Assembly: GCA_049599475.1 (NCBI GenBank) | Contig: JBMYOQ010000105.1 | Coordinates: forward strand, 1-12,197 | Direction: 5' to 3' | DNA from: Opitutales bacterium | GTDB taxonomy: Bacteria; Verrucomicrobiota; Verrucomicrobiia; Opitutales; JABSRG01 | Length of the DNA stretch: 12,197 bases | Shown here: one piece after another, positions 1 to 12,197 of the stretch | Numbering within the stretch: the first letter of the stretch is position 1 | How the letters are laid out: the number at the start of each line of letters is the position of its first letter | The notes under the pieces: model-generated | Seen by the model: only the letters and a program-made list of their open reading frames with translations | The model's database searches: none | What the model was told of the DNA's origin: nothing | Position numbers and translations under genes: made by a program

Positions 1-2
1 GG

Positions 3-49
3 GGTCGTCGGCTTCTACCAAAATAAACGAAAACACTTTTGAGAACCGA
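3..49 (-). repeat. Left copy of a 47-bp inverted repeat bounding the window; includes a truncated GTAG-type REP pointing outward
   Basis: 3..49 GGTCGTCGGCTTCTACCAAAATAAACGAAAACACTTTTGAGAACCGA equals the reverse complement of 12151..12197 at 46/47 positions (mismatch at position 21). Confidence 0.92.
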
Positions 50-103
50 TATAAATGGCTTCAATAAGATCTGGGGGGGCACTGACGACAGGCTGTCTCA
101 ATA

Positions 104-199
104 GGTAGCCCCGGATCACCGAACTGGCATAAGCGCGTCAGCCCAAGCAAGCTAAACGGCCAAGGCCGAGTCATGCCGGCTCGGTGATCCAGCGCTACC
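104..199. repeat. REP doublet (REPIN-like), copy 1
   Basis: GGTAGCCCCGGATCACCGAACTGGC on + and GGTAGCGCTGGATCACCGAGCCGGC on - face each other. The spacer (ATAAGCGCGTCAGCCC...GGCCAAGGCCGAGTCAT) matches the reverse complement of the spacers at 5482..5578 and 11910..11999. Confidence 0.85.
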
Positions 200-318
200 A
201 AAATAGAGCTTTATTCAAACTATTTAGACTACAAGAGGACACTACACCCCAAGTGTATACGAATTTTTTTTGAGAAGCCGTCTAAAACCGATACGCACCC
301 ATTTTGATAGACGGCGTC

Positions 319-409
319 GTAGTCACGGCCCTCCGCTGCCGTGTCACTCGGCAAAGCCGTTCAAGCCAATGTCATAAATGCAGGTGCCTCAACAAAACGA
401 GGCGGCTAC
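319..409. repeat. Diverged REP doublet; the right REP may also act as the 3' hairpin of the desaturase transcript
   Basis: GTAG-T-CACGGC-N8-GCCGTG at 319..343 (+) and GTAG-CC-GCCTC-N8-GAGGC at 409..386 (-). The 91-bp span is similar to the other doublets, and the spacer has weak ACTCGG..AGCCG..TGTC similarity to copy 3. Confidence 0.6.
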
Positions 410-414
410 AACCA

Positions 415-1419
415 TCACTGACTATCCGGCTTCAGTGAAACCTTCCGCTTTTTCTCCTCGTCCCAGAACAAGCAAATGAAGGACCTACGAAAATCTGACC
501 AAGTCAACGGTTCGACCGCAGCCACTTCAGGAATAGCCCGACGTACGGCTTCGAGGCGATAATTTGGGATTTTCATATTCAAATGATGCACATGGTGCAG
601 TCCGATATTCGCAGTAAACCAAGTGAACGGCTGGAAGAACTTGATATAGCTCGAGCCATGGAGCGCAGCGTCTTGAAACTCCCAATCGTCATTCCACTCA
701 AAATAGCTGTGCTCAAAATTGTGCTGTATCCAAAAAAGCAAGCTACCGAGACCTCCCGTTAAGAAATAGGAAGGAAATACGACGAGAAAATAAGTCGCCC
801 AACCCAGCCAATAACAGAGGAGTGCTTGAAGGATGAAGGCTCCGATATGAGTCACCCAAATGCTCCGGATGAGCTCCTCCCGCTTGGGCACCTCCCATTT
901 AAATTTCTCTCTAAATAGAAAAAAGCCCTTATAAGAACGCCGTCTGAACCCAATGCTGTAGATCCCATAGATCATCACACCGATGGTGGATACTTTTGCG
1001 TATGCTAGGTCGACCAGATGGGGGTCTTTCTTCGCCTCTTCAACGGTCGGCGGACTGTTCACCGAATCGACTCCGCGCTTCGAGAGATTGCCCTGATGCA
1101 AGTGATGCCAGCGATGCTCCGAGCGCCAGAGTTCATAGGGGACAGTAGTGATCCAGGCCAAAACATGGCCAACTATATCGTTGGTTCGGCTTCTCAAAAA
1201 TAGATTTTGGTGCCCACAATCATGCTGGAGCACAAACAACCGCATAATCAGCATGCCCGAAAGGAAGAAACATAAGATGTTTACCCAAATGCTATCCGTT
1301 TGATCCACCCACACCCAGAGGCCAAACCACAGCGCCGCTGTCGAGAACACCTGCCATAAGGAAATGATCAAGCTAGGGCGATAGAGCTCCTTGGGAATTC
1401 TGATCTTATTTTCAGGCAT
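415..1419 (-). CDS. Membrane-bound acyl-lipid fatty acid desaturase, Bacillus Des / DesA-like (334 aa)
   Basis: Three His boxes: HDCGH, HRWHH, HHVHH. Family-typical segments GNLSKRG, LFWIQHNFE, ALHGSSY, NIGLHHVHHLNMKIPNYRLE, plus hydrophobic segments. Start placed at ATG 1419 (MPENK); the longer ORF start at 1647 overlaps the FAR gene. Confidence 0.9.
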   Translation of the reverse strand: MPENKIRIPKELYRPSLIISLWQVFSTAALWFGLWVWVDQTDSIWVNILCFFLSGMLIMRLFVLQHDCGHQNLFLRSRTNDIVGHVLAWITTVPYELWRSEHRWHHLHQGNLSKRGVDSVNSPPTVEEAKKDPHLVDLAYAKVSTIGVMIYGIYSIGFRRRSYKGFFLFREKFKWEVPKREELIRSIWVTHIGAFILQALLCYWLGWATYFLVVFPSYFLTGGLGSLLFWIQHNFEHSYFEWNDDWEFQDAALHGSSYIKFFQPFTWFTANIGLHHVHHLNMKIPNYRLEAVRRAIPEVAAVEPLTWSDFRRSFICLFWDEEKKRKVSLKPDSQ

Positions 1420-1567
1420 AATTTCTAAGCTAGATGAATACCGCTCGTGAATACAAGCAAAGGCAACGCCACCACGCCATTTATATCCAGCGTCGATAAG
1501 TTCTATCACGAATTTTGTAGACTGGAATGCGATCCGCGCCATTAACGAGGGGGACTCACTCACCTCC

Positions 1568-3052
1568 ATGTCTGACAATATTTCCATATACCAGAGCTTT
1601 CGCGACAAGCGCGTGTTTCTCACTGGGGCAACAGGCTTTCTTGGCAAAGCAATTGTTGAGCGCCTCCTCGCAGTGGGTGTCGCACAGGTGTATGTCCTGA
1701 TTCGATCTTCGAAACGGCAAACTGTGGACGAGCGATGGCATCAATGCTTCGGCGAAAATCCGCTCTTTGCTGCCTATCAGGAAGATAAAAACTCGGAATT
1801 CGCAGAGCGCGTCGTTCCGCTCGAGGGCGATGTCGGCAAAGAGGGGCTAGGCCTATCACCTGAGACACGTTCGCTACTAGTGAACACGATCGACATCGTA
1901 ATCAACTCTGCAGGCCTCGTAAAATTTCATGCGCCCTTGGATCAAGCCTTAGATGTAAATATTCGGGGAGCCCTCAGAATGCTGGAGCTGGCGCAGGAGG
2001 CCGGCGCAAAATGTATCCATATTTCAACGGCATTCGTAAATAGTCACCGGAAGGGCGCAATCAGCGGCAGCTTCGAGTCTTTTGATAATGCGATCTCAGG
2101 TTCAGCGTATCCATCCGAGCAATCACTTGAGCAAGAAACCGCATTTTTACAGTCCAAAGTCAGCGAACTCGAAAAGACCGATGATGCCAAACGGAAGTCA
2201 CGGCGTCGATTAAACGAGCGGCTGAGCGATGCCGGACGAGAGATCGTTGATCAGCGCGGCTGGCCTAATATCTATACCTACACAAAATTTCTTTCGGAAT
2301 TTAATCTGAGAAAACACCGTAAAGGCTCCCCCCTGGCTATTGTTCGCCCATCAGTTATCTGGGCGGCACGACAATTCCCCTACCCCGGCTGGATCGAGGG
2401 CGCTCGCAATATCGACCACATGATCCTGGCTTATGGGAATGGCGATTTCAACCGATTCCCCGCAAATCGTTTCCACAGTCTGGATGTCATTCCTATCGAT
2501 GATGTAGTGCACGCTGTGCTAGCATCCGCAGCCGGCTTGGACCGCGAGCCCGAGCTCCTAGTTCAAGTCAGCTCCTCGGAAGCAAACCCAATGCAGTTTC
2601 ACCAGCTAGCGCAATCGGCATATCAGTATTTTACTGAGAATCCCGTTCGCAGATCCGACGGCAGCCCGATACCCGTAAAACCATTTGCATTTGCTTCGCA
2701 CTGGTTCTTTCGGATCGCCATGAAACTTCGAGCAGGCCTCTGGAGCGGGACAGAAGGGATCCTTTCACGTTTGCCCGATTCCATAAAACCGAAGGAGCTC
2801 AGTCGCACTGCTGCAGTCGGCAAACGAAACCTCGATCGCGACAAAGAAATTTTCGAGCTATTCTGGGAATTTTGCAGCGGTCTACGTACCTTCAGCGCAA
2901 ATACAGCAATCGATCTCACACAATTGCTGCCCACCAATGAACAAAGGGATTTCAACTTCGACCCCCGCTCGATCGAATGGGATAAATATCTGCGTCAGTG
3001 CCATATCCCTTCTTTGACGAAAGAAGCCGTATCCTTCGAATTTTCGGAATAG
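1568..3052 (+). CDS. Fatty acyl-CoA/ACP reductase (alcohol-forming FAR; extended SDR plus male-sterility C-terminal domain)
   Basis: VFLTGATGFLGK Rossmann motif, INSAGLVKF, HISTAFV, catalytic WPNIYTYTK (YxxxK), IVRPSVI, PYPGWIEG, DVIPID, and C-terminal FNFDPRSIEWDKYL. 494 aa, with architecture like plant, insect and Marinobacter single-unit FARs. Confidence 0.9.
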   Translation: MSDNISIYQSFRDKRVFLTGATGFLGKAIVERLLAVGVAQVYVLIRSSKRQTVDERWHQCFGENPLFAAYQEDKNSEFAERVVPLEGDVGKEGLGLSPETRSLLVNTIDIVINSAGLVKFHAPLDQALDVNIRGALRMLELAQEAGAKCIHISTAFVNSHRKGAISGSFESFDNAISGSAYPSEQSLEQETAFLQSKVSELEKTDDAKRKSRRRLNERLSDAGREIVDQRGWPNIYTYTKFLSEFNLRKHRKGSPLAIVRPSVIWAARQFPYPGWIEGARNIDHMILAYGNGDFNRFPANRFHSLDVIPIDDVVHAVLASAAGLDREPELLVQVSSSEANPMQFHQLAQSAYQYFTENPVRRSDGSPIPVKPFAFASHWFFRIAMKLRAGLWSGTEGILSRLPDSIKPKELSRTAAVGKRNLDRDKEIFELFWEFCSGLRTFSANTAIDLTQLLPTNEQRDFNFDPRSIEWDKYLRQCHIPSLTKEAVSFEFSE

Positions 3053-3067
3053 TTGAAGCAAGTAGAA

Positions 3068-3694
3068 ATGACGTTAAGATTTATATTCGATTTCGATGGA
3101 GTGCTGTGCGATTCAGAGGAGCACGCGTTTGAAGTATTGAATTACTTGGCGCCTATCCACCGCTACCAAGTGGCCGTGGATCGTGAGGAGTTAAGACGCC
3201 TCTCCGCCAGACAAATCATGGATATCTGTGGAGTGCCTCTCTGGAAAGTACCGATCATTTCCTGGCACGCCTGTTTCGTATCACGGAACCGAGGCCCCGA
3301 CATGGAACTATTTCCCGAAGTAGTCACTGTTCTTAAGGAGCTGCTCAAGGAGAATTTCGACATCCACATTGTGACCAGCAACGGTGCCCGCTACGTAAAA
3401 TCGATCATGCAACGCTACGAACTTCCGATTCGTAGACTGATTCCTCATACAAACATGCTCGGAAAGGCACGGCATATAAAGAAACTCATGCGCTCCTTTC
3501 CCGAAAATGATCCCGTAATCTATATCGGCGATCAAGTCGCGGATATAGAGGCTGCTCAGAAAGCTGGCTGCCTTTCGGGAGCTGTTGCGTGGGGCTTTAA
3601 TCATCCCGACCTGCTGAAGACAACGTCCCCAGATCATTTTTTCGAATCTCCCGAGGAATGGCGGGATTTATTTTTCGAGAAATCGGGAAAGTAG
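3068..3694 (+). CDS. HAD-superfamily phosphatase (Gph/PGPase-like)
   Basis: Motif I FDFDGVLCDS, motif II IVTSN, motif III GK, motif IV YIGDQVADIEAA, and AVAWGF. Start is ATG 3068 or TTG 3053 (the latter abuts the FAR stop). Confidence 0.9.
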   Translation: MTLRFIFDFDGVLCDSEEHAFEVLNYLAPIHRYQVAVDREELRRLSARQIMDICGVPLWKVPIISWHACFVSRNRGPDMELFPEVVTVLKELLKENFDIHIVTSNGARYVKSIMQRYELPIRRLIPHTNMLGKARHIKKLMRSFPENDPVIYIGDQVADIEAAQKAGCLSGAVAWGFNHPDLLKTTSPDHFFESPEEWRDLFFEKSGK

Positions 3695-3722
3695 CCGATT
3701 TCTCAAGCAAACATTTATCTCA

Positions 3723-4880
3723 CTATTTCGCCTGCTTCTCAGTCGGCGTATATTTCCAACCTGTATCCGCCCTGTAGACGACATTGCAACCCTTCGCTAT
3801 GCGCCACAGGGCCTGAGGAATGGGCGTCGGGTCAAATTTATAGAGATCCGGGTAAGCATCTCTCAAGGCTGCGGTCGCGCGCCGAGCGTGATAATGCGGT
3901 ATGCGCGAATTGATGTGGTGAGCTACATGCGTGCTGCCAATGTTGTGGTGTAAGAAATTGAGAATGGGTCCATAAGGCCGATCTACCGTGGAAAAAGCGC
4001 CAACAGTCCACGACCATTCACTTTCGTCGAAGTGTGGGACATCGACATCGGTATGCTGTAACCAGGTATACAATATCAGCCAAAAATTTACCACGAGGTA
4101 AGGCCCAACATACAGGGCCAGAACCGGAACAATTGAGCCAGCTGCAACCGCCCACCATACCAGCACACCCAAAAAGCCAATTACGCCCAGATCCGAAATC
4201 CACATTTTGGTATGCATGCGACGTGGAAACAGCGAGGTCGCGAATGGCTTCAACGGCCAGAAATGATTGGTGATTCCACGCTTCGGGCCTCCACTCAATC
4301 CGACAAGCAGATATAGGGGCCATCCAATCAAGAATTTACTGAGCATGCTGAAGATCGCGAAGGCGTCGTCACCCAGAAATTTCTCAAAGTCGCTCATTGC
4401 CTTGCCAGCCTTGGTGGTCTGACGGAGCGGCACAAAAGTCTCACCCTCATCGAGGTGATTCGTCTTAGAATGGTGCACGGCATGACTCCGTTGCCAGGAA
4501 TAGTAGGGTACCAGCAGAGCCGAATGCAGGACAAAGCCCACGGTATCTTGAACCCATTTTTGTCGAGCAAATGCACCATGCCCACATTCATGAGCAATTA
4601 CCCAGCAACCCGTAGCGACGGTGCCTGTGATAATCGCATAAGCGATCCAAACAGGCAGCCAAGCCCAGGTCATTGGAATGAAAAGATATCCGACACCCCC
4701 GAGGCCCAGCGTAAGCCCGACCGAGATAAACAAATAAATCGAGGATCTCAGAAGACTGATATTGAAGCAGTCTTTGGGTATTCTGGAAATTACCTCACGT
4801 TGCGGAGGCACAGGAATTTTGGCGGCCCGAGCCCTTCGGACATTCTCACTTTGGGCAATCTCTGGATTCAAATCAGACAC
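3723..4880 (-). CDS. FAD2-like omega-6 / Delta-12 fatty acid desaturase
   Basis: WVIAHECGHGAF, LLVPYYSWQRSHAVHH, TWLQHTD, STVDRPYG, HHNIGSTHVAHH..SRIPHYHA; N-terminal IPKDCF..SLLRS. GTG start, 385 aa. Confidence 0.92.
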   Translation of the reverse strand: MSDLNPEIAQSENVRRARAAKIPVPPQREVISRIPKDCFNISLLRSSIYLFISVGLTLGLGGVGYLFIPMTWAWLPVWIAYAIITGTVATGCWVIAHECGHGAFARQKWVQDTVGFVLHSALLVPYYSWQRSHAVHHSKTNHLDEGETFVPLRQTTKAGKAMSDFEKFLGDDAFAIFSMLSKFLIGWPLYLLVGLSGGPKRGITNHFWPLKPFATSLFPRRMHTKMWISDLGVIGFLGVLVWWAVAAGSIVPVLALYVGPYLVVNFWLILYTWLQHTDVDVPHFDESEWSWTVGAFSTVDRPYGPILNFLHHNIGSTHVAHHINSRIPHYHARRATAALRDAYPDLYKFDPTPIPQALWRIAKGCNVVYRADTGWKYTPTEKQAK

Positions 4881-4944
4881 AGTGTTTTAGAGGAGTATCC
4901 AAAACTTGCTTACCCGAGAGCACCAAGGATCGGGCCCACTTTAA

Positions 4945-5208
4945 TCAGCCCTGCTCTTCTTGAGTTTTGATTATCAAATCAACCGTCGCGGACACTTTGG
5001 AATCTAAGCTATCCACATCGTCGTCATCGAATTCCACGTCGAAGCGATCTTCTGCCTTAGCGATGATGTTTACGATCTCCGCAGAGGGGGCTCCCAAGTC
5101 AGTAATGAAGTCTGTATCTTCGGTAAGACCGTCAACCTTGTCCTGGTTTACAGTATTCACTGTTTTGAGTATTTCTTTAATTTCCTGCAGTACTTCGCTA
5201 CGGTCCAT
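4945..5208 (-). CDS. Acyl carrier protein (atypical attachment motif)
   Basis: 87 aa and very acidic. Fold signature TEDTDFITDLGAPSAEIVNIIAKAEDRFDVEF; the Ser is at the phosphopantetheine position, but the context is GAPSA rather than GxDSL. Confidence 0.88.
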   Translation of the reverse strand: MDRSEVLQEIKEILKTVNTVNQDKVDGLTEDTDFITDLGAPSAEIVNIIAKAEDRFDVEFDDDDVDSLDSKVSATVDLIIKTQEEQG

Positions 5209-5481
5209 GGGTGTCAGTCGATTGAGATTAATTCTTTAATTCGTGGGGCGGGGTGCTTTCTTCGATAGCCATCTGAGCGCTCTTGGAAAGGTCAAAATTT
5301 AAAGCTGCCCTCAGCAGAAACCAAACCACCCCTCGCGACCGGTCACCATAAGGGAAAATTGGATACTCCGACTGGTGTCGGCAACGGGTGTAAATAGAAC
5401 TGCGGGTATTCCTAATGCTGTCTACCCGATCCCGGCTGATACGGAGAGAGTGTCTCAAAAGTCTGGATTAAGGCAACTTCG

Positions 5482-5578
5482 GGTAGTGCCCGTTCACCGC
5501 AACGGGCATAATTCGGCCTTGGCTGCTTGGTTTGCTCGGGCTGACGCGCTCATGCCGGTTCGGTGAACCGGCGCCACC
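5482..5578. repeat. REP doublet (REPIN-like), copy 2
   Basis: GGTAGTGCCCGTTCACCGCAACGGGC (+) and GGTGGCGCCGGTTCACCGAACCGGC (-). The spacer is the inverted homologue of that in 104..199. Confidence 0.85.
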
Positions 5579-5626
5579 ATTTTAAGGCACCTTACAAAAA
5601 TTTCTTTCTTGGTCTCTGCCCGATTC

Positions 5627-5654
5627 TAGACATTGAATTCACGGTGAATGTCTA
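5627..5654. promoter_or_regulatory. Candidate operator palindrome in the divergent ACP / acyltransferase-FAS promoter region
   Basis: Perfect 8-bp arms TAGACATT-N12-AATGTCTA, with an overlapping second dyad ATTCAC-G-GTGAAT (5637..5649), about 125 bp upstream of ATG 5781. Confidence 0.4.
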
Positions 5655-5780
5655 ATTTGCTACCACCCTACTCGAGAAAACAGGCCTCTTGCGCAGCATA
5701 CAGGGATTCGGGAGTGGTCACAGATTTCAAGCCGTGCGGGCTCTGAGTTTATTGCTTTCAGACTTTTTAGGAATTCGGGT

Positions 5781-7202
5781 ATGAACATTCTGCGCAAAAT
5801 GGTTTTCTTCGGGGTCCATCAATTCTGTGGAACGGGTATGCGCACCTTGCAAAATTTACAGCTGCATGGCATAGAAAATCTGCCCCAAAGCGGCCCGTTC
5901 ATTATAGCATCGAATCATTGCAGCCACATGGACACTGCGGTCCACTTCCAGGCTCTGGGTGATCGGAAAGGCGATTTGCGGGTCTTAGCTGCGGAGGACT
6001 ATTTCTTTAAGAATGCACTATCCCGCACCCTGGTAGAGTGGATGTTTAACGGACTTCCAATGGGACGAAAGCGGATCAGCCCGAAATTCCTCAATCACTG
6101 CTCGGAGGAGACTGAGAAAGGGAACATAATCCTCATTTTTCCCGAAGGCACCCGTCAGACCTTTCCAGAGATTGCCTCCATTCGAGGCGCCATGGGGATG
6201 CTCGCCGCCCAATGTGGCGTACCCATCGTGCCCGCACGCATATTCGGAAGCCATCGAGCTATGCCCAAAGGGCGCCTACGCATTCATTGCTTTCCGGTAG
6301 AGGCCCATTTTGGCCAGCCCATCATCCCCGACCCGTTGCCTGAAACCGAAGGCACTGAGCGCAAGGCCTACTATGCGCGACTCAATAGCAAAATCGAATC
6401 CCAGCTGAAGGCCTTGAAGCGCCCGAGCAAAGGACGCGCATTGGTGACCGGCGCATCTTCCGGAATCGGAGCCGCTTTGGCAGAGGAATCCGCACAAGCA
6501 GGATACGATCTAATCTTGGTCGGAAGAGATCTCGAGCGACTGGAACAAGTGAAGACTCTGTGCGAATCGCGATATGGCATAACAGCTGACACGGAGCGTA
6601 TCGAATTGTCGGATGCAGAGCAGGTGGACTCCTGGCTGAAGCGCCTTGAATCAGATTCTAAGCAAATCGACATCCTCATCAACAACGCGGGCTTGGGCAA
6701 TGCGGGCACTCTGGACAGCGCAGACCCCACGGATTTAGATACATTGATTCAGGTAAATATCCGAGCGCTCACACTCATGACCCGCGCGGTTTTGCCCAAA
6801 ATGAAACAGCAGGGAAACGGGAAAATATTAAACATCGGCTCCGTTTACGGTGTCGCGCCGGTTCCCAGACAAGCAACCTACGGAGCGTCCAAGGCCTTCG
6901 TTCACTCATTCAGCATAGCTCTCCGCGAGGAATTAAAAGGAACAAGTATCACCGTGACCTCAGCCCTCCCCGGCTCCACCGATACCGGCTTTCACAAGCG
7001 CCTAAATATCAGCCTTAAGCGAAAGACCGGATCCATGTCCGCGGAGACCGTTGCCCGAGGCCTCTGGCGCGCTACCCTCGCTGGTAAAGCGACCTACACA
7101 GTGGGCACGCATAATGTCATTTTTGTGAAATTATCCAAAATACTTCCGTCCACTTGGGTGTCCGCGTTTTTGTCGCGCTACAACGCACATCGCGGCTTAT
7201 GA
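5781..7202 (+). CDS. Fusion of a PlsC/LPLAT-family acyltransferase (N-terminal, about aa 1-215) and a classical SDR oxidoreductase (C-terminal)
   Basis: N-terminal: GIENLPQSGPFIIASNHCSHMD (NHxxxxD), LIFPEGTR, VPIVPARIFG, AMPKG, FGQPI. C-terminal: ALVTGASSGIG, INNAG, NIGS, catalytic YGASK, REELKGT. One uninterrupted 473-aa frame. Confidence 0.9.
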   Translation: MNILRKMVFFGVHQFCGTGMRTLQNLQLHGIENLPQSGPFIIASNHCSHMDTAVHFQALGDRKGDLRVLAAEDYFFKNALSRTLVEWMFNGLPMGRKRISPKFLNHCSEETEKGNIILIFPEGTRQTFPEIASIRGAMGMLAAQCGVPIVPARIFGSHRAMPKGRLRIHCFPVEAHFGQPIIPDPLPETEGTERKAYYARLNSKIESQLKALKRPSKGRALVTGASSGIGAALAEESAQAGYDLILVGRDLERLEQVKTLCESRYGITADTERIELSDAEQVDSWLKRLESDSKQIDILINNAGLGNAGTLDSADPTDLDTLIQVNIRALTLMTRAVLPKMKQQGNGKILNIGSVYGVAPVPRQATYGASKAFVHSFSIALREELKGTSITVTSALPGSTDTGFHKRLNISLKRKTGSMSAETVARGLWRATLAGKATYTVGTHNVIFVKLSKILPSTWVSAFLSRYNAHRGL

Positions 7203-7262
7203 ATTGCTTTGACCCGATTTCTCCACGGCTGCATTGCCGTATCGTCACACCTGTAAAATAGA

Positions 7263-8006
7263 ATGCCAAAGACCATCTTAGTAACCGGAGCCAGTCGCGG
7301 TTTGGGCCGCGCGATCGCGGAGCGCCTGGCCGTCGATTATGATCTCATCCTTCACGCAAGTAGTGAAGCGTCCCTCGAAGGGACCCTTGAGGCAATTCGT
7401 GGCAAGGAGCACAACAAGATCGAGATGCTTCCCGCCGACTTCTCATCACCGGAGGAACAGGAAACCTTCTGCAAGGAGCTCAAGAAATTGGCGAAGGACG
7501 GACTGGGTGGTGTCGTTAATAATGCAGGGATCGCGCTCGATAAACCCCTTTTGTATCAGCCCATCAAGGACATTGACCTGATGCTCAATGTAAACCTGCG
7601 CGCACCGATACTCATCGGCAAAACGGCTTTCCGCATTTTCCTGAAACAACAGCACGGCGTGATCATTAATATAGGTTCAATCGCGGGCGAGGTCGGCAAT
7701 GCTTACCAATCCGTCTACGCCGCCACCAAAGCTGCGCTCTCCGGCTTGTCCAAAAGCTGGTCCCAAGAAGCCACTGAGCTGGCCCCAGGCTCTGCTATTC
7801 GAGCCCTCACAATCAATCCTGGCTTTTTCCAAACCGAGATGATCGATAAAATTCCCGAGGCGATCATCGAGACTTACCGCAAACGCATACCCAGCGGCCG
7901 CTTTGGAAACCCGCAAGAGCTGGCAAACTTCGTGGCCTTTCTTTTTGGACCTGATGCCGCCTATCTCAATGGCGTAGACTTTTCGATCAACGGAGGCATC
8001 CGCTAG
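7263..8006 (+). CDS. fabG: 3-oxoacyl-ACP reductase
   Basis: VTGASRGLG, VNNAGI, INIGS, YAATKAAL, NPGFFQTEM, IPSGRFGNPQELA, YLNG..INGG; first gene of a coupled FAS operon. Confidence 0.85.
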   Translation: MPKTILVTGASRGLGRAIAERLAVDYDLILHASSEASLEGTLEAIRGKEHNKIEMLPADFSSPEEQETFCKELKKLAKDGLGGVVNNAGIALDKPLLYQPIKDIDLMLNVNLRAPILIGKTAFRIFLKQQHGVIINIGSIAGEVGNAYQSVYAATKAALSGLSKSWSQEATELAPGSAIRALTINPGFFQTEMIDKIPEAIIETYRKRIPSGRFGNPQELANFVAFLFGPDAAYLNGVDFSINGGIR

Positions 8007-8705
8007 ATGAAAGGAGTTTATACAGGCGACTGCATCGAACTGGACCAGGAAGATATTCATCTACTGCAGGAAAAGCGTCACCCCGTCCAACAGGAGGCGA
8101 TCCGAGATTTGCCCGAGGGGAATAAAGAAGACCTCTTCGCACTGCCTTTGCCTTTCATGGCGGCGGTTCAGACCGCGACAAGTTTCTATGCGAAGGGCAC
8201 CGGTAAATACGGTAAAGGCTACGCCGAGGGCCAATGGAAGGTGGACCCGAACGATCCGTGGTTTTGGTGCCACTTTGTCCGCGACCCGGTAATGCCTGGA
8301 TCTTTGGGCACAGATGGTCTCTTCCAACTTGCCGGAATCTGGGGAGCCTTTACGCGTAAAATTCAAGGGCGCCCACGGGCTCTCGAAGGAAAATTCACCT
8401 ACGATGGGCAGATCTTCCCCAATGCCCAATGTGTGTATTATCGGATCGATGTATCGCGCTTTTTGAAGAATCGACGGCTCATGCAGTTCGACGGACAAAT
8501 TGCCGTGGACGACCCGGAAAATGTGATCTATCGCTACGAAGGCTGTAAGATGGGCTACTTCTTCCGCGAAGAACTCGGAATCCCCGAAGGCCCCGCCAGC
8601 ACGTATTATTCGCCAGACTGGGAAACCTGCCGCGTAAAGGCACTCGAATCCGTCCAAAGCTCTCAACGCCTCTCAGAAGCTTCTGACGCATCCAATTTAT
8701 CATGA
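8007..8705 (+). CDS. fabA: FabA-like 3-hydroxyacyl-ACP dehydratase/isomerase with C-terminal extension
   Basis: GKYGKGY, then WFWCHFVRDPVMPGSLGTDGLFQLAG, matching the FabA signature (CHF..DPVMPG.LG.D..WQ) with catalytic His and Asp; also RALEG and GQIFP. Confidence 0.85.
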   Translation: MKGVYTGDCIELDQEDIHLLQEKRHPVQQEAIRDLPEGNKEDLFALPLPFMAAVQTATSFYAKGTGKYGKGYAEGQWKVDPNDPWFWCHFVRDPVMPGSLGTDGLFQLAGIWGAFTRKIQGRPRALEGKFTYDGQIFPNAQCVYYRIDVSRFLKNRRLMQFDGQIAVDDPENVIYRYEGCKMGYFFREELGIPEGPASTYYSPDWETCRVKALESVQSSQRLSEASDASNLS

Positions 8706-9319
8706 CAGAGAAACTGACTCATTCTTCAAACTTGGCTGATTCGCTCCTGGACTGTCGCCCCGAGGACATTCTTCCCCACGGGCCGTCCAAGCTCTTTGTC
8801 GATTCCTATGTCTGGCATCAACCCGGATTTGGTGGGGCCGCGGCCTACACAGTCACCGAAGAAGATGTTAAGGATCACTTCGGAATCATGCGCGGAGTGG
8901 ACCAAATCGAGTTTTTCGGCCAGGCCATTACTGTTTCCTGCGGCATCCATTATATCGCCCACAAGGAGGGATGGACTCTGGAGCAATTGCACCGCGAAGT
9001 CCTCTTTCTATTCTTAGGCGTCGGCGAAGTGCGCTTTCGCTCGCAGGCCGATGTGGGAGATCGTTTGGTCGCTCTAGGATATTTTACTTTTCACAAATTT
9101 CGCCAAGGCATCACCGACGGAAGAATCTATGTAGTGCCCAAGCATTACGACTTAAAAGAACTTTTTTCGGATTTTAATGAAGAGCGCCTGCGCAATTACG
9201 ACCTCCCCGAAGATTGTCGACTGGTTACCGAGCTCTTTGGGACAACTGGCAAGCTTGTGAAGAAATCCAAACTCGAGGCCAAACGCCAACAAGCCGAAAA
9301 GGAGTCGTCTGCATCATGA
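8702..9319 (+). CDS. Divergent FabZ-like hotdog-fold dehydratase
   Basis: ILPHGPSKLFVD (cf. LPHRYPFLLVD), DHFGIMRGVDQIEFFGQ (cf. HFP...MPGVL.IEA.AQ, His and Glu kept), FLGVGEVRFRSQADVGDRL (cf. F.GID..RFK.PV.PGD.L). ATGA overlaps at both ends. Confidence 0.75.
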   Translation: MTEKLTHSSNLADSLLDCRPEDILPHGPSKLFVDSYVWHQPGFGGAAAYTVTEEDVKDHFGIMRGVDQIEFFGQAITVSCGIHYIAHKEGWTLEQLHREVLFLFLGVGEVRFRSQADVGDRLVALGYFTFHKFRQGITDGRIYVVPKHYDLKELFSDFNEERLRNYDLPEDCRLVTELFGTTGKLVKKSKLEAKRQQAEKESSAS

Positions 9320-10665
9320 GCCGCCGAAAAGTCGCCGTCGTCGGGATGGGAGGCACCTTCCCGACCTGTTCAAATCTCGAAGAGTTCGAGTCTAAACTAT
9401 TCGGAAACAAGACATTGATACGCGAATGGCCCGAAGCCTCCGCCTATGGTAAAAAGCTGAGGTCACACGTTTCTGGATACGTGACGCCCGAAGAAAGCGG
9501 AATCGAGCCCGTGTATTCCAGCATGCTGGAATACTACGTCGAATACTATCGAGACCTTTCCGGAAACATCCCCACCGAAAATTTGGCTACATCAGACTTG
9601 CCATCGATCTGGAGCATGCAAGGCGCCGACCAAGCGGTAAAAATGGCAGGCTGGAGCATCGATGAAGTTTCCTCAGAACAAACCGCCGTTATCTTGGGAT
9701 CAGCAGGTGGCGGCAATGCTATCTTGCGCCCAGGCTGGCACGCATTCTTCGAGAATAATAAGAAATCGCGCTTACTCGGCTCACACAATGTGGACCGTGC
9801 GATGACCTATCGTGAGGCCGCCAATGTCTCCTGCTTTTTGAAGACCAAGGGCATGTGCGAGGGATTAGGCTCAGCCTGTGCGACGGGTTTAGGGAGCATC
9901 GGTTATGCCTACCGAATGATTGCCAACGGATATCAAGAGCGTGCGATTACCGGCGCTGCCGAGGGCACATCCCTGGAATCTTTTCTCGGCTTCGATGCCA
10001 TGAGTGTGCTGAGCCGTGGATTTGCACCTGAGAAAAGCTCACGTCCATTTGCGGCAGACCGCGGCGGCTTCGTCTGCTCCTTCGGAAGCGGTATCGTATG
10101 CCTTGAAAATCTCGAACTGGCCGAAGCTCGCGGGGCGCCCATCCTCGGGGTGATTGAAGGCTACCACAACAATGCCGACGGCGATGGTGACATGTTTTCC
10201 CCCTCATTCGATGGACAGCGCAGGTTATGGCAGGGCTTATTCGCAGATGCAGGATCCGACGCTAAGCCCGACGTCGTCAAGGCTCATGGAACGTCTACCC
10301 CCACAGGCGACGGCTTAGAGCTGAACAGCATCGTTTCCGTTCTTGGCTCAAAAGACTATTTGGTCTCTGCCCCGAAATCGCAATTTGGACATATGCTGGG
10401 TGCAGCGGGATCGGTGGAATTTGTAGTGGCTCTGTTGATGCTCAAACGCAACGAGGCGTCTCCCTGCCAAAATTCAGAAATCCTCAGCGAAGAATTGGAA
10501 GCCTTCCAGACAAGTCCAGAGTGGTCAGGCCCCAAGGAACCCATCGCAGCCTATCGCGACATTTTACCCACCCACGCGACTCCGACACAAATCGAGCGAA
10601 TCGCCTGCCTAAACTACGGTTTCGGAGGCACCAACGCAGCTATAATGATCAAGCGATATGAGTGA
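9316..10665 (+). CDS. Beta-ketoacyl-ACP synthase (FabB/FabF family), 449 aa
   Basis: RRKVAVVGMG, catalytic SACATG, AHGTST..GD..E, KSQFGHMLGAAG, SRPFAADRGGFV, NYGFGGTN; Cys-His-His triad intact. ATG 9316 overlaps the upstream TGA (ATGA). FabB versus FabF cannot be resolved by eye. Confidence 0.92.
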   Translation: MSRRKVAVVGMGGTFPTCSNLEEFESKLFGNKTLIREWPEASAYGKKLRSHVSGYVTPEESGIEPVYSSMLEYYVEYYRDLSGNIPTENLATSDLPSIWSMQGADQAVKMAGWSIDEVSSEQTAVILGSAGGGNAILRPGWHAFFENNKKSRLLGSHNVDRAMTYREAANVSCFLKTKGMCEGLGSACATGLGSIGYAYRMIANGYQERAITGAAEGTSLESFLGFDAMSVLSRGFAPEKSSRPFAADRGGFVCSFGSGIVCLENLELAEARGAPILGVIEGYHNNADGDGDMFSPSFDGQRRLWQGLFADAGSDAKPDVVKAHGTSTPTGDGLELNSIVSVLGSKDYLVSAPKSQFGHMLGAAGSVEFVVALLMLKRNEASPCQNSEILSEELEAFQTSPEWSGPKEPIAAYRDILPTHATPTQIERIACLNYGFGGTNAAIMIKRYE

Positions 10666-11497
10666 TTCTAAAGAAGTTCAACTCCCAGGTATTCAGGGAA
10701 AAACAGCTCTCATTTTTGGAGTAAGAAACGATGCCTCGATAGCCTGGGCCACTGCTGAATCTCTCCATGCTCAGGGCTGCACCGTTGCGCTTAATTATCT
10801 TCCTGATACCCAAGTCGAGGTCGAAGCCCTGGCAAAAAAAGCAGGCATGGATCCAGAGCTCATCCAGCAAGTAGATGTCCGGAAAGAGGCAGAGATCCAG
10901 AGCTTCGTAGATGCCGTCCATAAAAAATCTGGCAATATCGACTTCGTCTTTCATTCGGTCGCCTACGGCAATCATCGCGTAATGTGCAGCAAGGCTCCCG
11001 GTTCTCAGGATGAGCCCACAGATTTCCTAGATATTCCCTTCGATGATTTCATGGATTCATTTAACATTAGCACATATTCTCTGCTGAGGATTTGTAGAAC
11101 CTGTAAGCCCTTCTTAAATCCAGGAGCTTCCGTATTGGCCATGACATACAACGCCTCACAACGCGTGCTGCCCGCCTACGGTGGTATGGCCATCAACAAG
11201 GCTGCCTTGGAGAACTTGACTCAGTACCTCGCACATCATTTAGCCGACACTGATATCAGAGTGAATGCGCTCTCTGCCGGACTGGTCATGACCACTTCCG
11301 CAGCCGGTATCACCGGCGTTCGCAAGATGAGAAAACTCAGCAGACAAATTTCTCCACTAGGTAATGTGAAGGCGCAAGACGTAGCCGACGCCGCCTTGTA
11401 TTATTTTTCCGACCTCTCCCAAAAGGTCACTGGAAACATTCATTATATCGATGGAGGTATCAATATGATGGGGACGGCTGGAAATGAAGGCGCCTGA
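10658..11497 (+). CDS. fabI: Enoyl-ACP reductase
   Basis: GKTALIFGVRNDASIAW, IDFVFHSVAY, NISTYSL, MTY...RVLPAYGGMAINKAALE (Y-X6-K), IRVNALSAG, VTGNIHYIDGG. Confidence 0.9.
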   Translation: MSDSKEVQLPGIQGKTALIFGVRNDASIAWATAESLHAQGCTVALNYLPDTQVEVEALAKKAGMDPELIQQVDVRKEAEIQSFVDAVHKKSGNIDFVFHSVAYGNHRVMCSKAPGSQDEPTDFLDIPFDDFMDSFNISTYSLLRICRTCKPFLNPGASVLAMTYNASQRVLPAYGGMAINKAALENLTQYLAHHLADTDIRVNALSAGLVMTTSAAGITGVRKMRKLSRQISPLGNVKAQDVADAALYYFSDLSQKVTGNIHYIDGGINMMGTAGNEGA

Positions 11498-11882
11498 GCC
11501 AAATCTGGACACATGCGTCGATTTCCCTGTTTTCGTCGGAAACGATCTCGTCCACCTTCCCGGTTTTCGCCAACTGCTCAATCCCTCGTTCATCAGACGC
11601 GCCTACGCCGAGTCCGAAGTAAATTATTGCGAACAATTCGAAGACTCCGGCCTGCGCTACGCTTCAACCTGGGCTGCAAAAGAAGCCACCATGAAAGCAT
11701 TGCGCCAAGCCATCCCAGGATTCACCTGCCCCTGGAAGCAGATTGTTATCCTTCGCGAAAAGGCTTCTGGCATACCCCACGTGCACCTACCCGAGAAGGC
11801 CGGCACAGAGCTTAAAAGCAGACTCACCCTGAGCCACGACGGAGACTACGTTTGGGCCATCGCGCTGATGAGTAAGGCCTAG
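11484..11882 (+). CDS. acpS: Holo-ACP synthase (AcpS-type phosphopantetheinyl transferase)
   Basis: VGNDLV, RYASTWAAKEATMKAL, SGIPHV, LTLSHDGDYVWAIA; 132 aa, overlapping the fabI end by 14 bp. Confidence 0.9.
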   Translation: MKAPEPNLDTCVDFPVFVGNDLVHLPGFRQLLNPSFIRRAYAESEVNYCEQFEDSGLRYASTWAAKEATMKALRQAIPGFTCPWKQIVILREKASGIPHVHLPEKAGTELKSRLTLSHDGDYVWAIALMSKA

Positions 11883-11909
11883 CGTATCCAGTTCCAGCAT
11901 TTTCAGAAA

Positions 11910-11999
11910 GGTAACGCCGGTTCACCGTAACCGGCATGACTCGGTCTTAGCCGAATTAGGCTGTCGCGCTTATGCCCGTTGGTTTCCAAGGGCCCTACC
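11910..11999. repeat. REP doublet (REPIN-like), copy 3, just downstream of the FAS operon
   Basis: GGTAACGCCGGTTCACCGTAACCGGC (+) and GGTAGGGCCCTTGGAAACCAACGGGC (-). Spacer ATGACTCGGTCTTAGCCGAATTAGGCTGTCGCGCTTAT is homologous to copies 1 and 2. Confidence 0.85.
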
Positions 12000-12037
12000 T
12001 TTTCGACCTCAATAAATACACCACGAAAATACTTTCA

Positions 12038-12130
12038 TCACGCCCGCTCCGCTCAAGACGCCAAGACCCAAAGCGTAAACACAGATGAAACCTTTCAGCT
12101 GATTCTTGGGGTCTTCGGGTCTTTGCGTGA
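12038..12130. repeat. Long imperfect hairpin element with 8-nt periodic arms
   Basis: AAGACGCCAAGACCCAAAG (12055..12073) pairs with 12105..12123 at 16/19 positions; the outer TCACGC (12038..12043) pairs with GCGTGA (12125..12130). Confidence 0.65.
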
Positions 12131-12150
12131 AACCCCTAGCAACAATTACG

Positions 12151-12197
12151 TCGGTTCTCAAAAGTGTTTTCGTTTATTCTGGTAGAAGCCGACGACC
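12151..12197 (+). repeat. Right copy of the 47-bp terminal inverted repeat
   Basis: TCGGTTCTCAAAAGTGTTTTCGTTTATTCTGGTAGAAGCCGACGACC is the reverse complement of 3..49 (46/47); it ends within a GTAG-AA-GCCGAC REP-like arm. Confidence 0.92.

Follow-up and report, generated by a model that had tools for sequence, protein, structure and literature searches.

A Verrucomicrobiota gene cluster predicted to make unsaturated ether lipids by a variant of the AGPS-dependent route

Comparison with described ether-lipid systems

In the available part of the source (PMC9131029), ether-lipid synthesis in Myxococcus xanthus is assigned to two loci, elbA-E and MXAN_1676-1674, most steps of which are uncharacterised, and the AGPS operon among them ends in a gene for a NAD-dependent enzyme. 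In mammals, the acyl/alkyl-dihydroxyacetone phosphate (DHAP) reductase DHRS7B is a short-chain dehydrogenase/reductase (SDR) with a TGxxxGxG motif, according to the accessible text of PMC7517302. Here we analysed a locus of an Opitutales bacterium (Verrucomicrobiota) in a stretch of 12,197 bp, the window, which is the entire contig C105 of the binned genome G000 (4.68 Mb in 146 contigs, the smallest of 3,195 bp; completeness rating 96.6%). The locus runs on past the window end, and the window DNA was also present in seawater metagenomes. The window holds 12 uninterrupted open reading frames (ORFs) between positions 415 and 11882. Judging from the genes alone, we consider it on balance probable that the locus makes unsaturated 1-O-alkyl glycerolipids by an AGPS-dependent pathway, with chains supplied partly by its own fatty acid synthesis (FAS) cassette and desaturases. 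For the ether core alone, namely a fatty acyl reductase (FAR), a PlsC-type acyltransferase, an SDR and AGPS, our confidence is high.

The locus would work like the AGPS-dependent alkyl ether pathway in a variant form; it is not a full member of that pathway as defined, because it has no GNPAT. It resembles MXAN_1676-1675-1674 of M. xanthus (AGPS, a FAR-GNPAT fusion and a NAD-dependent enzyme; PMC9131029, PMC13012113) in combining AGPS, FAR, an acyltransferase and a NAD(P)-dependent oxidoreductase in one bacterial locus. However, the acyltransferase of the window is a short PlsC-type domain fused to an SDR, as opposed to a GNPAT-like domain fused to FAR. Furthermore, the locus has an added FAS cassette, two desaturases and a HAD-IA phosphatase, no CarF was found (control genomes were equally silent), and the phylum is different. 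The mammalian peroxisomal pathway (FAR1, GNPAT, AGPS, DHRS7B/PexRAP and PEDS1) shares with the locus the AGPS motifs, an alcohol-forming FAR and an SDR in the reductase slot, whereas the locus is without GNPAT, shows no PEDS1 (with the same silent controls), has its genes clustered and is probably fed by an acyl carrier protein (ACP).

A preliminary description of the window had assigned its 12 genes to the families treated below, and the Pfam and NCBIfam profiles by which we assigned families agreed with it; the catalytic motifs of the desaturases, FAR, acyltransferase, SDR, ketosynthase (KS) and HAD proteins are unbroken. Its statement that all 12 are lipid enzymes holds for most of them, but the ACP is a carrier and the HAD protein is generic, with a role suggested by context. 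It was also right that the locus fits none of the polyketide synthase (PKS), pfa and elb patterns. We rejected an aryl polyene or type II PKS cluster since there is a single KS with an intact Cys-His-His triad and no KS/chain-length factor pair. The elb locus, to which it had likened the window, has FAR, a carrier, an AGPAT-like acyltransferase and a HAD protein in common with the window. An elb reading was nevertheless rejected: the FAR of the window stands alone, there is neither a multidomain ElbD (FAR-adenylation-ACP-acyltransferase) nor an adenylation domain, the HAD protein is type IA and not IB, and AGPS can account for the ether bond. The MXAN_1676-1674 type of operon is therefore the closer model. 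True ElbD-type proteins were met in other loci, and HAD-IB genes lie beside ElbD-type and AGPS genes elsewhere.

The four-enzyme pathway has been reported for 73 genomes of bacteria, of which 61 belong to Myxococcota (PMC13012113). The accessible text of that paper does not mention Verrucomicrobiota, and its datasets (12 of 15 files searched) contain Verrucomicrobiota rows for FAR and AGPS; related genes have thus been catalogued, while a description of the locus was not found in the parts available. PMC13159169 reports distant agps homologs in its table S21, and the accessible portion of a sponge preprint (10.64898/2026.06.23.733905) does not mention the phylum. We found no paper on the cluster, the PlsC-SDR fusion or the Bacteroidota cassette described below, in a search with most subscription journals outside its scope.

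The ether core and the linked AGPS gene

The core features of the window are as follows.

1568..3052, plus strand: alcohol-forming FAR, 494 aa (PF07993, NAD_binding_4, E 1.2e-58; PF03015, Sterile, below cut-off)
5781..7202, plus strand: PlsC-type acyltransferase (about aa 1-210) fused to a classical SDR (aa 217-473) (PF01553 and PF00106, adh_short)
11883..12197, no strand: 3' flank with dispersed repeats; the AGPS gene (P0242, 616 aa) is placed beyond it, outside the window and the binned genome

The AGPS gene, the key gene for the ether bond, was absent from the gene list of the preliminary description. Searching with the AGPS of the same-genus genome G001 returned P0242 (P-numbers are protein records), which is 86% identical, occurs in Logan only and is recorded on a contig of 41,703 bp; the PlsC-SDR and FAR of the window are likewise recorded on a 41,703-bp contig. 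In sequencing run X1, a contig of 41,703 bp has bases 1-12172 that equal window positions 26-12197 without a mismatch, and it continues for 29.5 kb. Because the P0242 contig and the window-bearing X1 contig are both 41,703 bp, and from the arrangement in relatives, we take AGPS to be located within these further 29.5 kb. The 86% identity of P0242 to the same-genus AGPS fits the 73-97% of the other orthologs.

By its sequence, P0242 is an AGPS. Residues 25-614 matched mammalian AGPS (4bby) with an E value of 5.7e-141, and the protein matched Dictyostelium AGPS at 4e-89, whereas D-lactate dehydrogenase was matched only at 4e-28. Conserved in P0242 are GHEPDS, ASLRLMD, SHHHG and a Tyr aligned to position 578 (Phe in the 4bca chain), residues that we take to have the catalytic roles of their AGPS counterparts. 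P0241, P0242 and P0243 are all whole with intact motifs. In G001, a whole AGPS of 598 aa lies tail to tail with acpS, across contig ends that overlap by 149 bp at 98% identity. In the relative G003, AGPS lies in two frames (18075-19894 of fetched locus L083; L-numbers denote such loci), tail to tail with the PlsC-SDR gene.

The FAR is a stand-alone protein and the sole strong FAR match in G000. Its best PDB match, over the full length, was a fatty acyl-CoA reductase (7eoz, E 2.5e-59), and the TGATGFLG and YTYTK motifs are present. This family membership suggests that it would supply the fatty alcohol, with an acyl thioester as its presumed substrate.

The PlsC-SDR fusion is proposed to be an acyltransferase plus acyl/alkyl-DHAP reductase. 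Its two parts retain the acyltransferase motifs HCSHMD and FPEGTR and the SDR motifs TGASSGIG and YGASK. The fusion was seen in 4 of the best 120 matches listed (four sequence clusters), and it adjoins AGPS both in G003 and in the record of P0003 (PlsC-SDR, 58%) and P0243 (AGPS, 71%), whose accessions directly follow each other and which share a contig of 15,297 bp. The acyltransferase domain scored 89-114 bits against FAR-fused domains and 86-95 bits against ElbD-type domains, compared to 68 bits against the housekeeping PlsC. An intact SDR occupies the reductase slot in both lineages that carry the core, although the two SDRs are not orthologous; the SDR is accordingly a putative alkyl-DHAP reductase by position and not by orthology. 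An AlphaFold model of the fusion (four sequences) had a mean pLDDT of 61.7 and gave Foldseek matches to generic SDRs only, and an Atlas search with the SDR likewise gave generic neighbours. A metagenome scan with an alignment of the fusion returned no further PlsC-SDR fusion among at least 43 loci, the best segments being 25-47% identical. In six of the metagenome loci (L042, L047, L049, L050, L052 and L053), an SDR gene is directly followed by a PlsC-type gene; these genes are ~33-36% like the halves of the fusion, and no FAR match was seen in these loci.

The fatty acid synthesis cassette

Seven genes of the window form the FAS cassette, including the ACP and a phosphopantetheinyl transferase (PPTase).

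4945..5208, minus strand: cassette ACP, 87 aa (PF00550; Ser42 in P-S-A-E instead of D-S-L)
7263..8006, plus strand: FabG-like ketoreductase (TIGR01830, 174 bits, cut-off 298; 50-54% to the Bacteroidota cassette)
8007..8705, plus strand: FabA-like dehydratase/isomerase (PF07977, E 3.2e-24; FabA model 93 bits, cut-off 238)
8702..9319, plus strand: FabZ/ApeP-like hot-dog dehydratase (no Pfam match; NF000582, NCBIfam FabZ, weak, E 1.5e-4)
9316..10665, plus strand: single elongating KS, Cys-His-His (58-61% to the Bacteroidota cassette KS, 28-30% to the other KS genes of the genome)
10658..11497, plus strand: FabI-like enoyl reductase (PRK08415, 207 bits, below cut-off; 53-60% to the Bacteroidota cassette)
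11484..11882, plus strand: AcpS-type PPTase, the second of two in the genome (TIGR00556, over cut-off)

The FAS half is, by sequence comparison, a stand-alone Bacteroidota cassette. Scanning the GTDB collection with the FabA-like protein (close relatives only) gave eight loci, two in the same-genus record and six in Bacteroidota. Five of these six contain the full run of fabG, fabA-like, fabZ-like, ACP, KS, fabI and acpS at 33-61% identity; one of the five has broken frames, and the sixth locus is cut by a contig end. The flanks of the Bacteroidota cassettes are unrelated and often include an alpha/beta hydrolase. Among 300 further Bacteroidota genomes, a single one had the cassette, in a copy (L110) that lacks the FabA-like gene and has an alpha/beta hydrolase and a PlsC-like gene downstream. 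The stand-alone six- to seven-gene cassette with a P-S-T-E ACP is patchy in Bacteroidota, with occurrences in Zobellia, Aquimarina and metagenome-assembled genomes (L003-L008 and L110).

The cassette ACP is 51-55% identical to the Bacteroidota cassette ACPs, compared to 27% to the housekeeping ACP, and its family shows P-S-T/A-E at the attachment serine. This serine context may be why the cassette has a dedicated PPTase. The KS matched KAS I-type structures best in the PDB (E 5e-48 to 1e-43; KAS II, 2e-42) and scored 214 bits for KAS II and 203 bits for KAS I in NCBIfam, both under the cut-off. Its only close ortholog among 40 relatives was in G001 (E 6.6e-280; next best 3e-46). The FabA-like protein aligns with FabA structures and retains the HFxxDPVMPG..D (His/Asp) motif, and an unsaturated-chain product of the cassette is plausible on these grounds. 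The FabA-like His/Asp motif and the KAS I-type KS matches recall the FabA/FabB unsaturated route of Escherichia coli, whereas the FabA-like protein is divergent and the cassette has its own ACP, PPTase, FabG, FabI and second dehydratase. In the Atlas, the FabZ-like protein had an unnamed Bacteroidota cluster (0.97) and ApeP-like clusters (0.91) as neighbours.

In line with the preliminary description, the FAS of the window is not the housekeeping one. FabG, ACP, FabF (C31), an LpxC-FabZ fusion (C7) and FabD (C1) were found elsewhere in G000 over their NCBIfam cut-offs, together with a FabH-like gene, PlsY, PlsC and the other PPTase gene (PF01648, on C4). The FabG, FabA, KS, FabI and ACP proteins of the window all fell below their cut-offs, and a housekeeping fab cluster was ruled out on this basis. 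The genome has further accessory FAS-like genes: a flavin oxidoreductase with FabZ-like, FabI-like and KAS III-like genes and an alpha/beta hydrolase (L031 1318-6076, C106), a KS with an ACP and a flavin oxidoreductase (L026 7541-10595, C8), and an ACP-FabZ fusion (L032 6035-6970, C18).

The desaturases and the HAD phosphatase

The remaining genes of the window encode two desaturases and a phosphatase.

415..1419, minus strand: membrane desaturase 1, Bacillus DesA (Delta5)-like, 334 aa (PF00487, E 3.7e-29; NF052548, 206 bits, cut-off 500; three His boxes)
3053..3694, likely start 3068, plus strand: HAD-IA phosphatase (PF13419, E 1.4e-18; DFDG motif)
3723..4880, minus strand: membrane desaturase 2, omega-6/Delta12 (FAD2)-like, 385 aa (PF00487, E 6e-32; three His boxes)

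Desaturase 1 is found beside FAR in G003 as well, at 52% identity. The best library representatives of desaturase 2 are ~50% identical, and one of these clusters includes an MMETSP transcript; another cluster, 45% identical, is named omega-6/delta-12 desaturase. A close ortholog of desaturase 2 was found only in G001 among five genomes, and an algal origin of this gene is a lead only, suggested by these matches. A third PF00487 desaturase lies with a CmpB-like membrane protein and a membrane metallophosphoesterase on C72 of G000 (17394-19971) and in L087 (8079-10654), and this group adjoins desaturase 1 in G001. A junction of C72 with the left end of the window, as present in G001, was not supported for G000, and the X1 contig starts at window position 26.

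The best NCBIfam match of the HAD protein was phosphoglycolate phosphatase, below cut-off, which marks it as a generic HAD-IA; the gene context suggests a lipid role. Among the distant FAR homologs (P0123-P0240), FAR-HAD fusions of 740-810 aa were the majority of the matches listed, and FAR and HAD genes are often paired elsewhere.

Conservation and mosaic make-up of the locus

G001 keeps all 12 genes in the same order at 73-97% identity, and the cluster is thus not a chance arrangement. Across 400 genomes of the order, FAR was found in four (G001, G003, and G229 and G369 of another family) and AGPS in five, these four and G082; the family tallies of the two surveys agree. In each of the four genomes with FAR, AGPS belongs to that same locus, but these genomes represent two lineages and their counts cannot be taken as independent events. 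Across the phylum, AGPS was found in 1 of 400 genomes. The locus of G003 has the order Psd, PssA-like, desaturase 1, CdsA, FAR, methyltransferase, PlsC-SDR and AGPS, and those of G229 and G369 have a FAR-PlsC fusion, AGPS and an SDR, all in one direction. The ether core is kept across the two families, and the FAS cassette, desaturase 2 and the HAD protein were seen with it only in this genus, which makes the locus a mosaic.

Another AGPS architecture was seen in G082 (L096 7192-11869), a run of thioester reductase, HAD-IB and AGPS (32%). In addition, P0124 (FAR, 34%) and P0244 (AGPS, 54%) are both on Logan contigs of 5,287 bp and probably belong to another FAR-AGPS locus.

Proposed pathway

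The cassette (KS, FabG, FabA-like, FabZ-like and FabI proteins with their own ACP and PPTase) would elongate acyl chains using the housekeeping FabD and FabH, and the FabA-like enzyme may introduce a cis double bond. The two desaturases would add further double bonds, at positions and on substrates presumed from their families, so that polyunsaturated chains may result. FAR would convert the acyl thioester to the fatty alcohol. Acyl-DHAP would arise either by acylation of DHAP by the PlsC-type domain or by oxidation of PlsY-made lysophosphatidate by the SDR; the fusion would suit the latter option, with the acyltransferase acting at sn-2. AGPS, identified by sequence, would exchange the acyl group for the alcohol to give alkyl-DHAP, which the fused SDR may reduce to 1-alkyl-glycerol-3-phosphate. 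Acylation at sn-2 would be performed by the PlsC-type domain or by the housekeeping PlsC.

The HAD protein may then yield an alkylglycerol or an alkyl-acylglycerol. Alternatively, CdsA, PssA and Psd, whose genes are found elsewhere in G000, would yield plasmanyl-ethanolamine, to which the presence of these genes in the G003 locus also points. A vinyl ether (plasmalogen) product is not expected. PF10520 (PEDS1/CarF) had no match in five genomes, with control genomes equally silent, and both window desaturases belong to PF00487.

A more specific route without GNPAT can be put forward tentatively, and in its entirety we think it rather unlikely. In this route, the SDR would oxidise PlsY-made lysophosphatidate to acyl-DHAP, AGPS would swap in the alcohol, the same SDR would reduce the alkyl-DHAP and the PlsC domain would acylate sn-2. 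With chains from the FabA-type FAS of Bacteroidota origin and from a Delta12 desaturase of algal type, the alkyl ether lipids formed would be polyunsaturated, and the HAD protein would release free 1-O-monoalkylglycerols as well.

Evidence against the pathway and alternative explanations

Several observations weigh against the AGPS-dependent pathway proposed here. AGPS was not found in the binned G000 with PF02913 (one sub-threshold match, C21), tblastn or HMMER, and its link to the window is deduced from the matching 41,703-bp size and from relatives, not from a position that was seen. Given that the bin is without contigs under 3,195 bp and breaks at a 17-copy repeat, a short contig with AGPS may have been left out of it. 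A position of contig C26 after AGPS in G000, as the G001 order would suggest, was not supported: a Logan member of the NUDIX cluster at the C26 end is on a 15,989-bp contig. Several assemblies of the G003 species have AGPS interrupted at the same point, but P0552 and P0546 are whole; this counts mildly against strong selection there, and strain-level loss and phase variation are two readings of the interruption. The AGPS operon gives a minor part of the M. xanthus ether lipids, according to the available part of PMC9131029, and dataset S2 (GNPAT) of PMC13012113 has no Verrucomicrobiota row. No GNPAT-type DHAP acyltransferase was found, the window domain being PlsC-sized (~200 aa), and the three PF01553 genes of G000 are an MFS/acyltransferase/ligase fusion, the housekeeping PlsC and the window fusion. 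The acyltransferase tree left the sister group unresolved. Orthology of the fused SDR with the operon SDRs of G229 and G369 was not supported (33-34% identity, separate branches), and its nearest structures were generic ketone reductases.

The preliminary description treated the window as one cluster, and the linkage of the FAS half to the FAR/desaturase half does recur in G001, but the halves occur apart in Bacteroidota and in three relatives. It is accordingly possible, though doubtful, that the ether core is real and that the FAS cassette and desaturases were acquired separately, only share its lipid island and raise the unsaturation of ordinary ester membrane lipids. Consistent with this, the cassette is free-standing in Bacteroidota with unrelated flanks, and neither AGPS nor FAR was found in five of five Bacteroidota cassette carriers (searches without a positive control). 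G003, G229 and G369 have the core without the cassette, the HAD protein and desaturase 2 also being missing from their fetched loci, and the window genes run in several transcription directions. However, the cassette ACP has moved from its place between fabZ and KS to a position among the FAR and desaturase genes, the PlsC-SDR gene heads the fabG-acpS run that AGPS closes in G001, desaturase 1 lies beside FAR across genera, and in G369 a FabA gene and a KS gene are located ~2.2 kb away from the FAR fusion. These arrangements argue for a functional connection between chain synthesis and the ether core.

As for the product, an ether lipid, a wax ester or an acylglycerol had been envisaged, and the AGPS linkage strongly favours the first; the wax ester is disfavoured. 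In a second alternative, FAR and the acyltransferase would yield wax esters or fatty alcohols in free form, a product that the earlier list allowed, and AGPS would be incidental or decaying; this would agree with the missing AGPS in the binned genome and the split gene in several G003-species assemblies. We consider it improbable, since none of the four relatives has FAR without an adjacent AGPS and P0241, P0242 and P0243 are whole with intact motifs; PF03007 (WS/DGAT) had no match in five genomes, a weak point as the controls were equally silent. Since the reaction of AGPS is an exchange and SDRs can work in either direction, the core might instead serve to remodel or salvage fatty alcohols and ether lipids of algal or animal origin, without de novo synthesis. 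This is slightly less probable again: the alcohol-forming FAR and the CdsA, PssA and Psd genes of G003 point to building, and the window has no kinase, GlpD, acyl-CoA ligase or transporter.

Sequence features and repeats of the window

The GC content at third codon positions of the 12 genes is 0.51-0.64, near the genome mean of 0.55 +/- 0.06, and gives no sign of recent transfer. Promoter and terminator scans of the window were at or below chance. Run X2 contained 0.39 of the window words, as short matching pieces.

A palindromic dispersed repeat of ~100 nt occurs at about 91-215, 5480-5580 and 11905-11990 of the window, with 56 BLAST matches in the genome; for two copies the folding energy was about -50 kcal/mol, without a shuffled control. 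A repeat of 53-55 nt forms an inverted pair at 1-55 and 12143-12197; 12 of its 17 genome copies are at contig ends, and it is the likely cause of the assembly breaks. An insertion sequence was not supported as the identity of these end repeats, as no transposase-like ORF was seen, by eye, beside the three internal copies examined.

Implications

The analysis predicts that a marine bacterium probably makes unsaturated ether lipids by a variant of the animal-style route. Aerobic bacterial ether-lipid synthesis has been described mainly in Myxococcota, where most steps are themselves unproven (PMC9131029). The small, separate parts in one locus make three questions testable: whether AGPS and FAR suffice for the ether bond, what makes acyl-DHAP in the absence of GNPAT, and which enzyme is the alkyl-DHAP reductase. 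In surveys with GNPAT as a requirement, these genomes would count as incomplete. A second unit of interest is the FAS cassette that stands alone in Bacteroidota.

We know of no identified producers of the 1-O-monoalkyl glycerol ethers of ocean particles. Such ethers, with varying unsaturation, have been reported in South Atlantic and Southern Ocean particles (available part of PMC5552659, citing Hernandez-Sanchez 2014). The route without GNPAT, if true, would give the unsaturated monoalkyl glycerol ethers found in seawater particles a bacterial source that is defined genetically.

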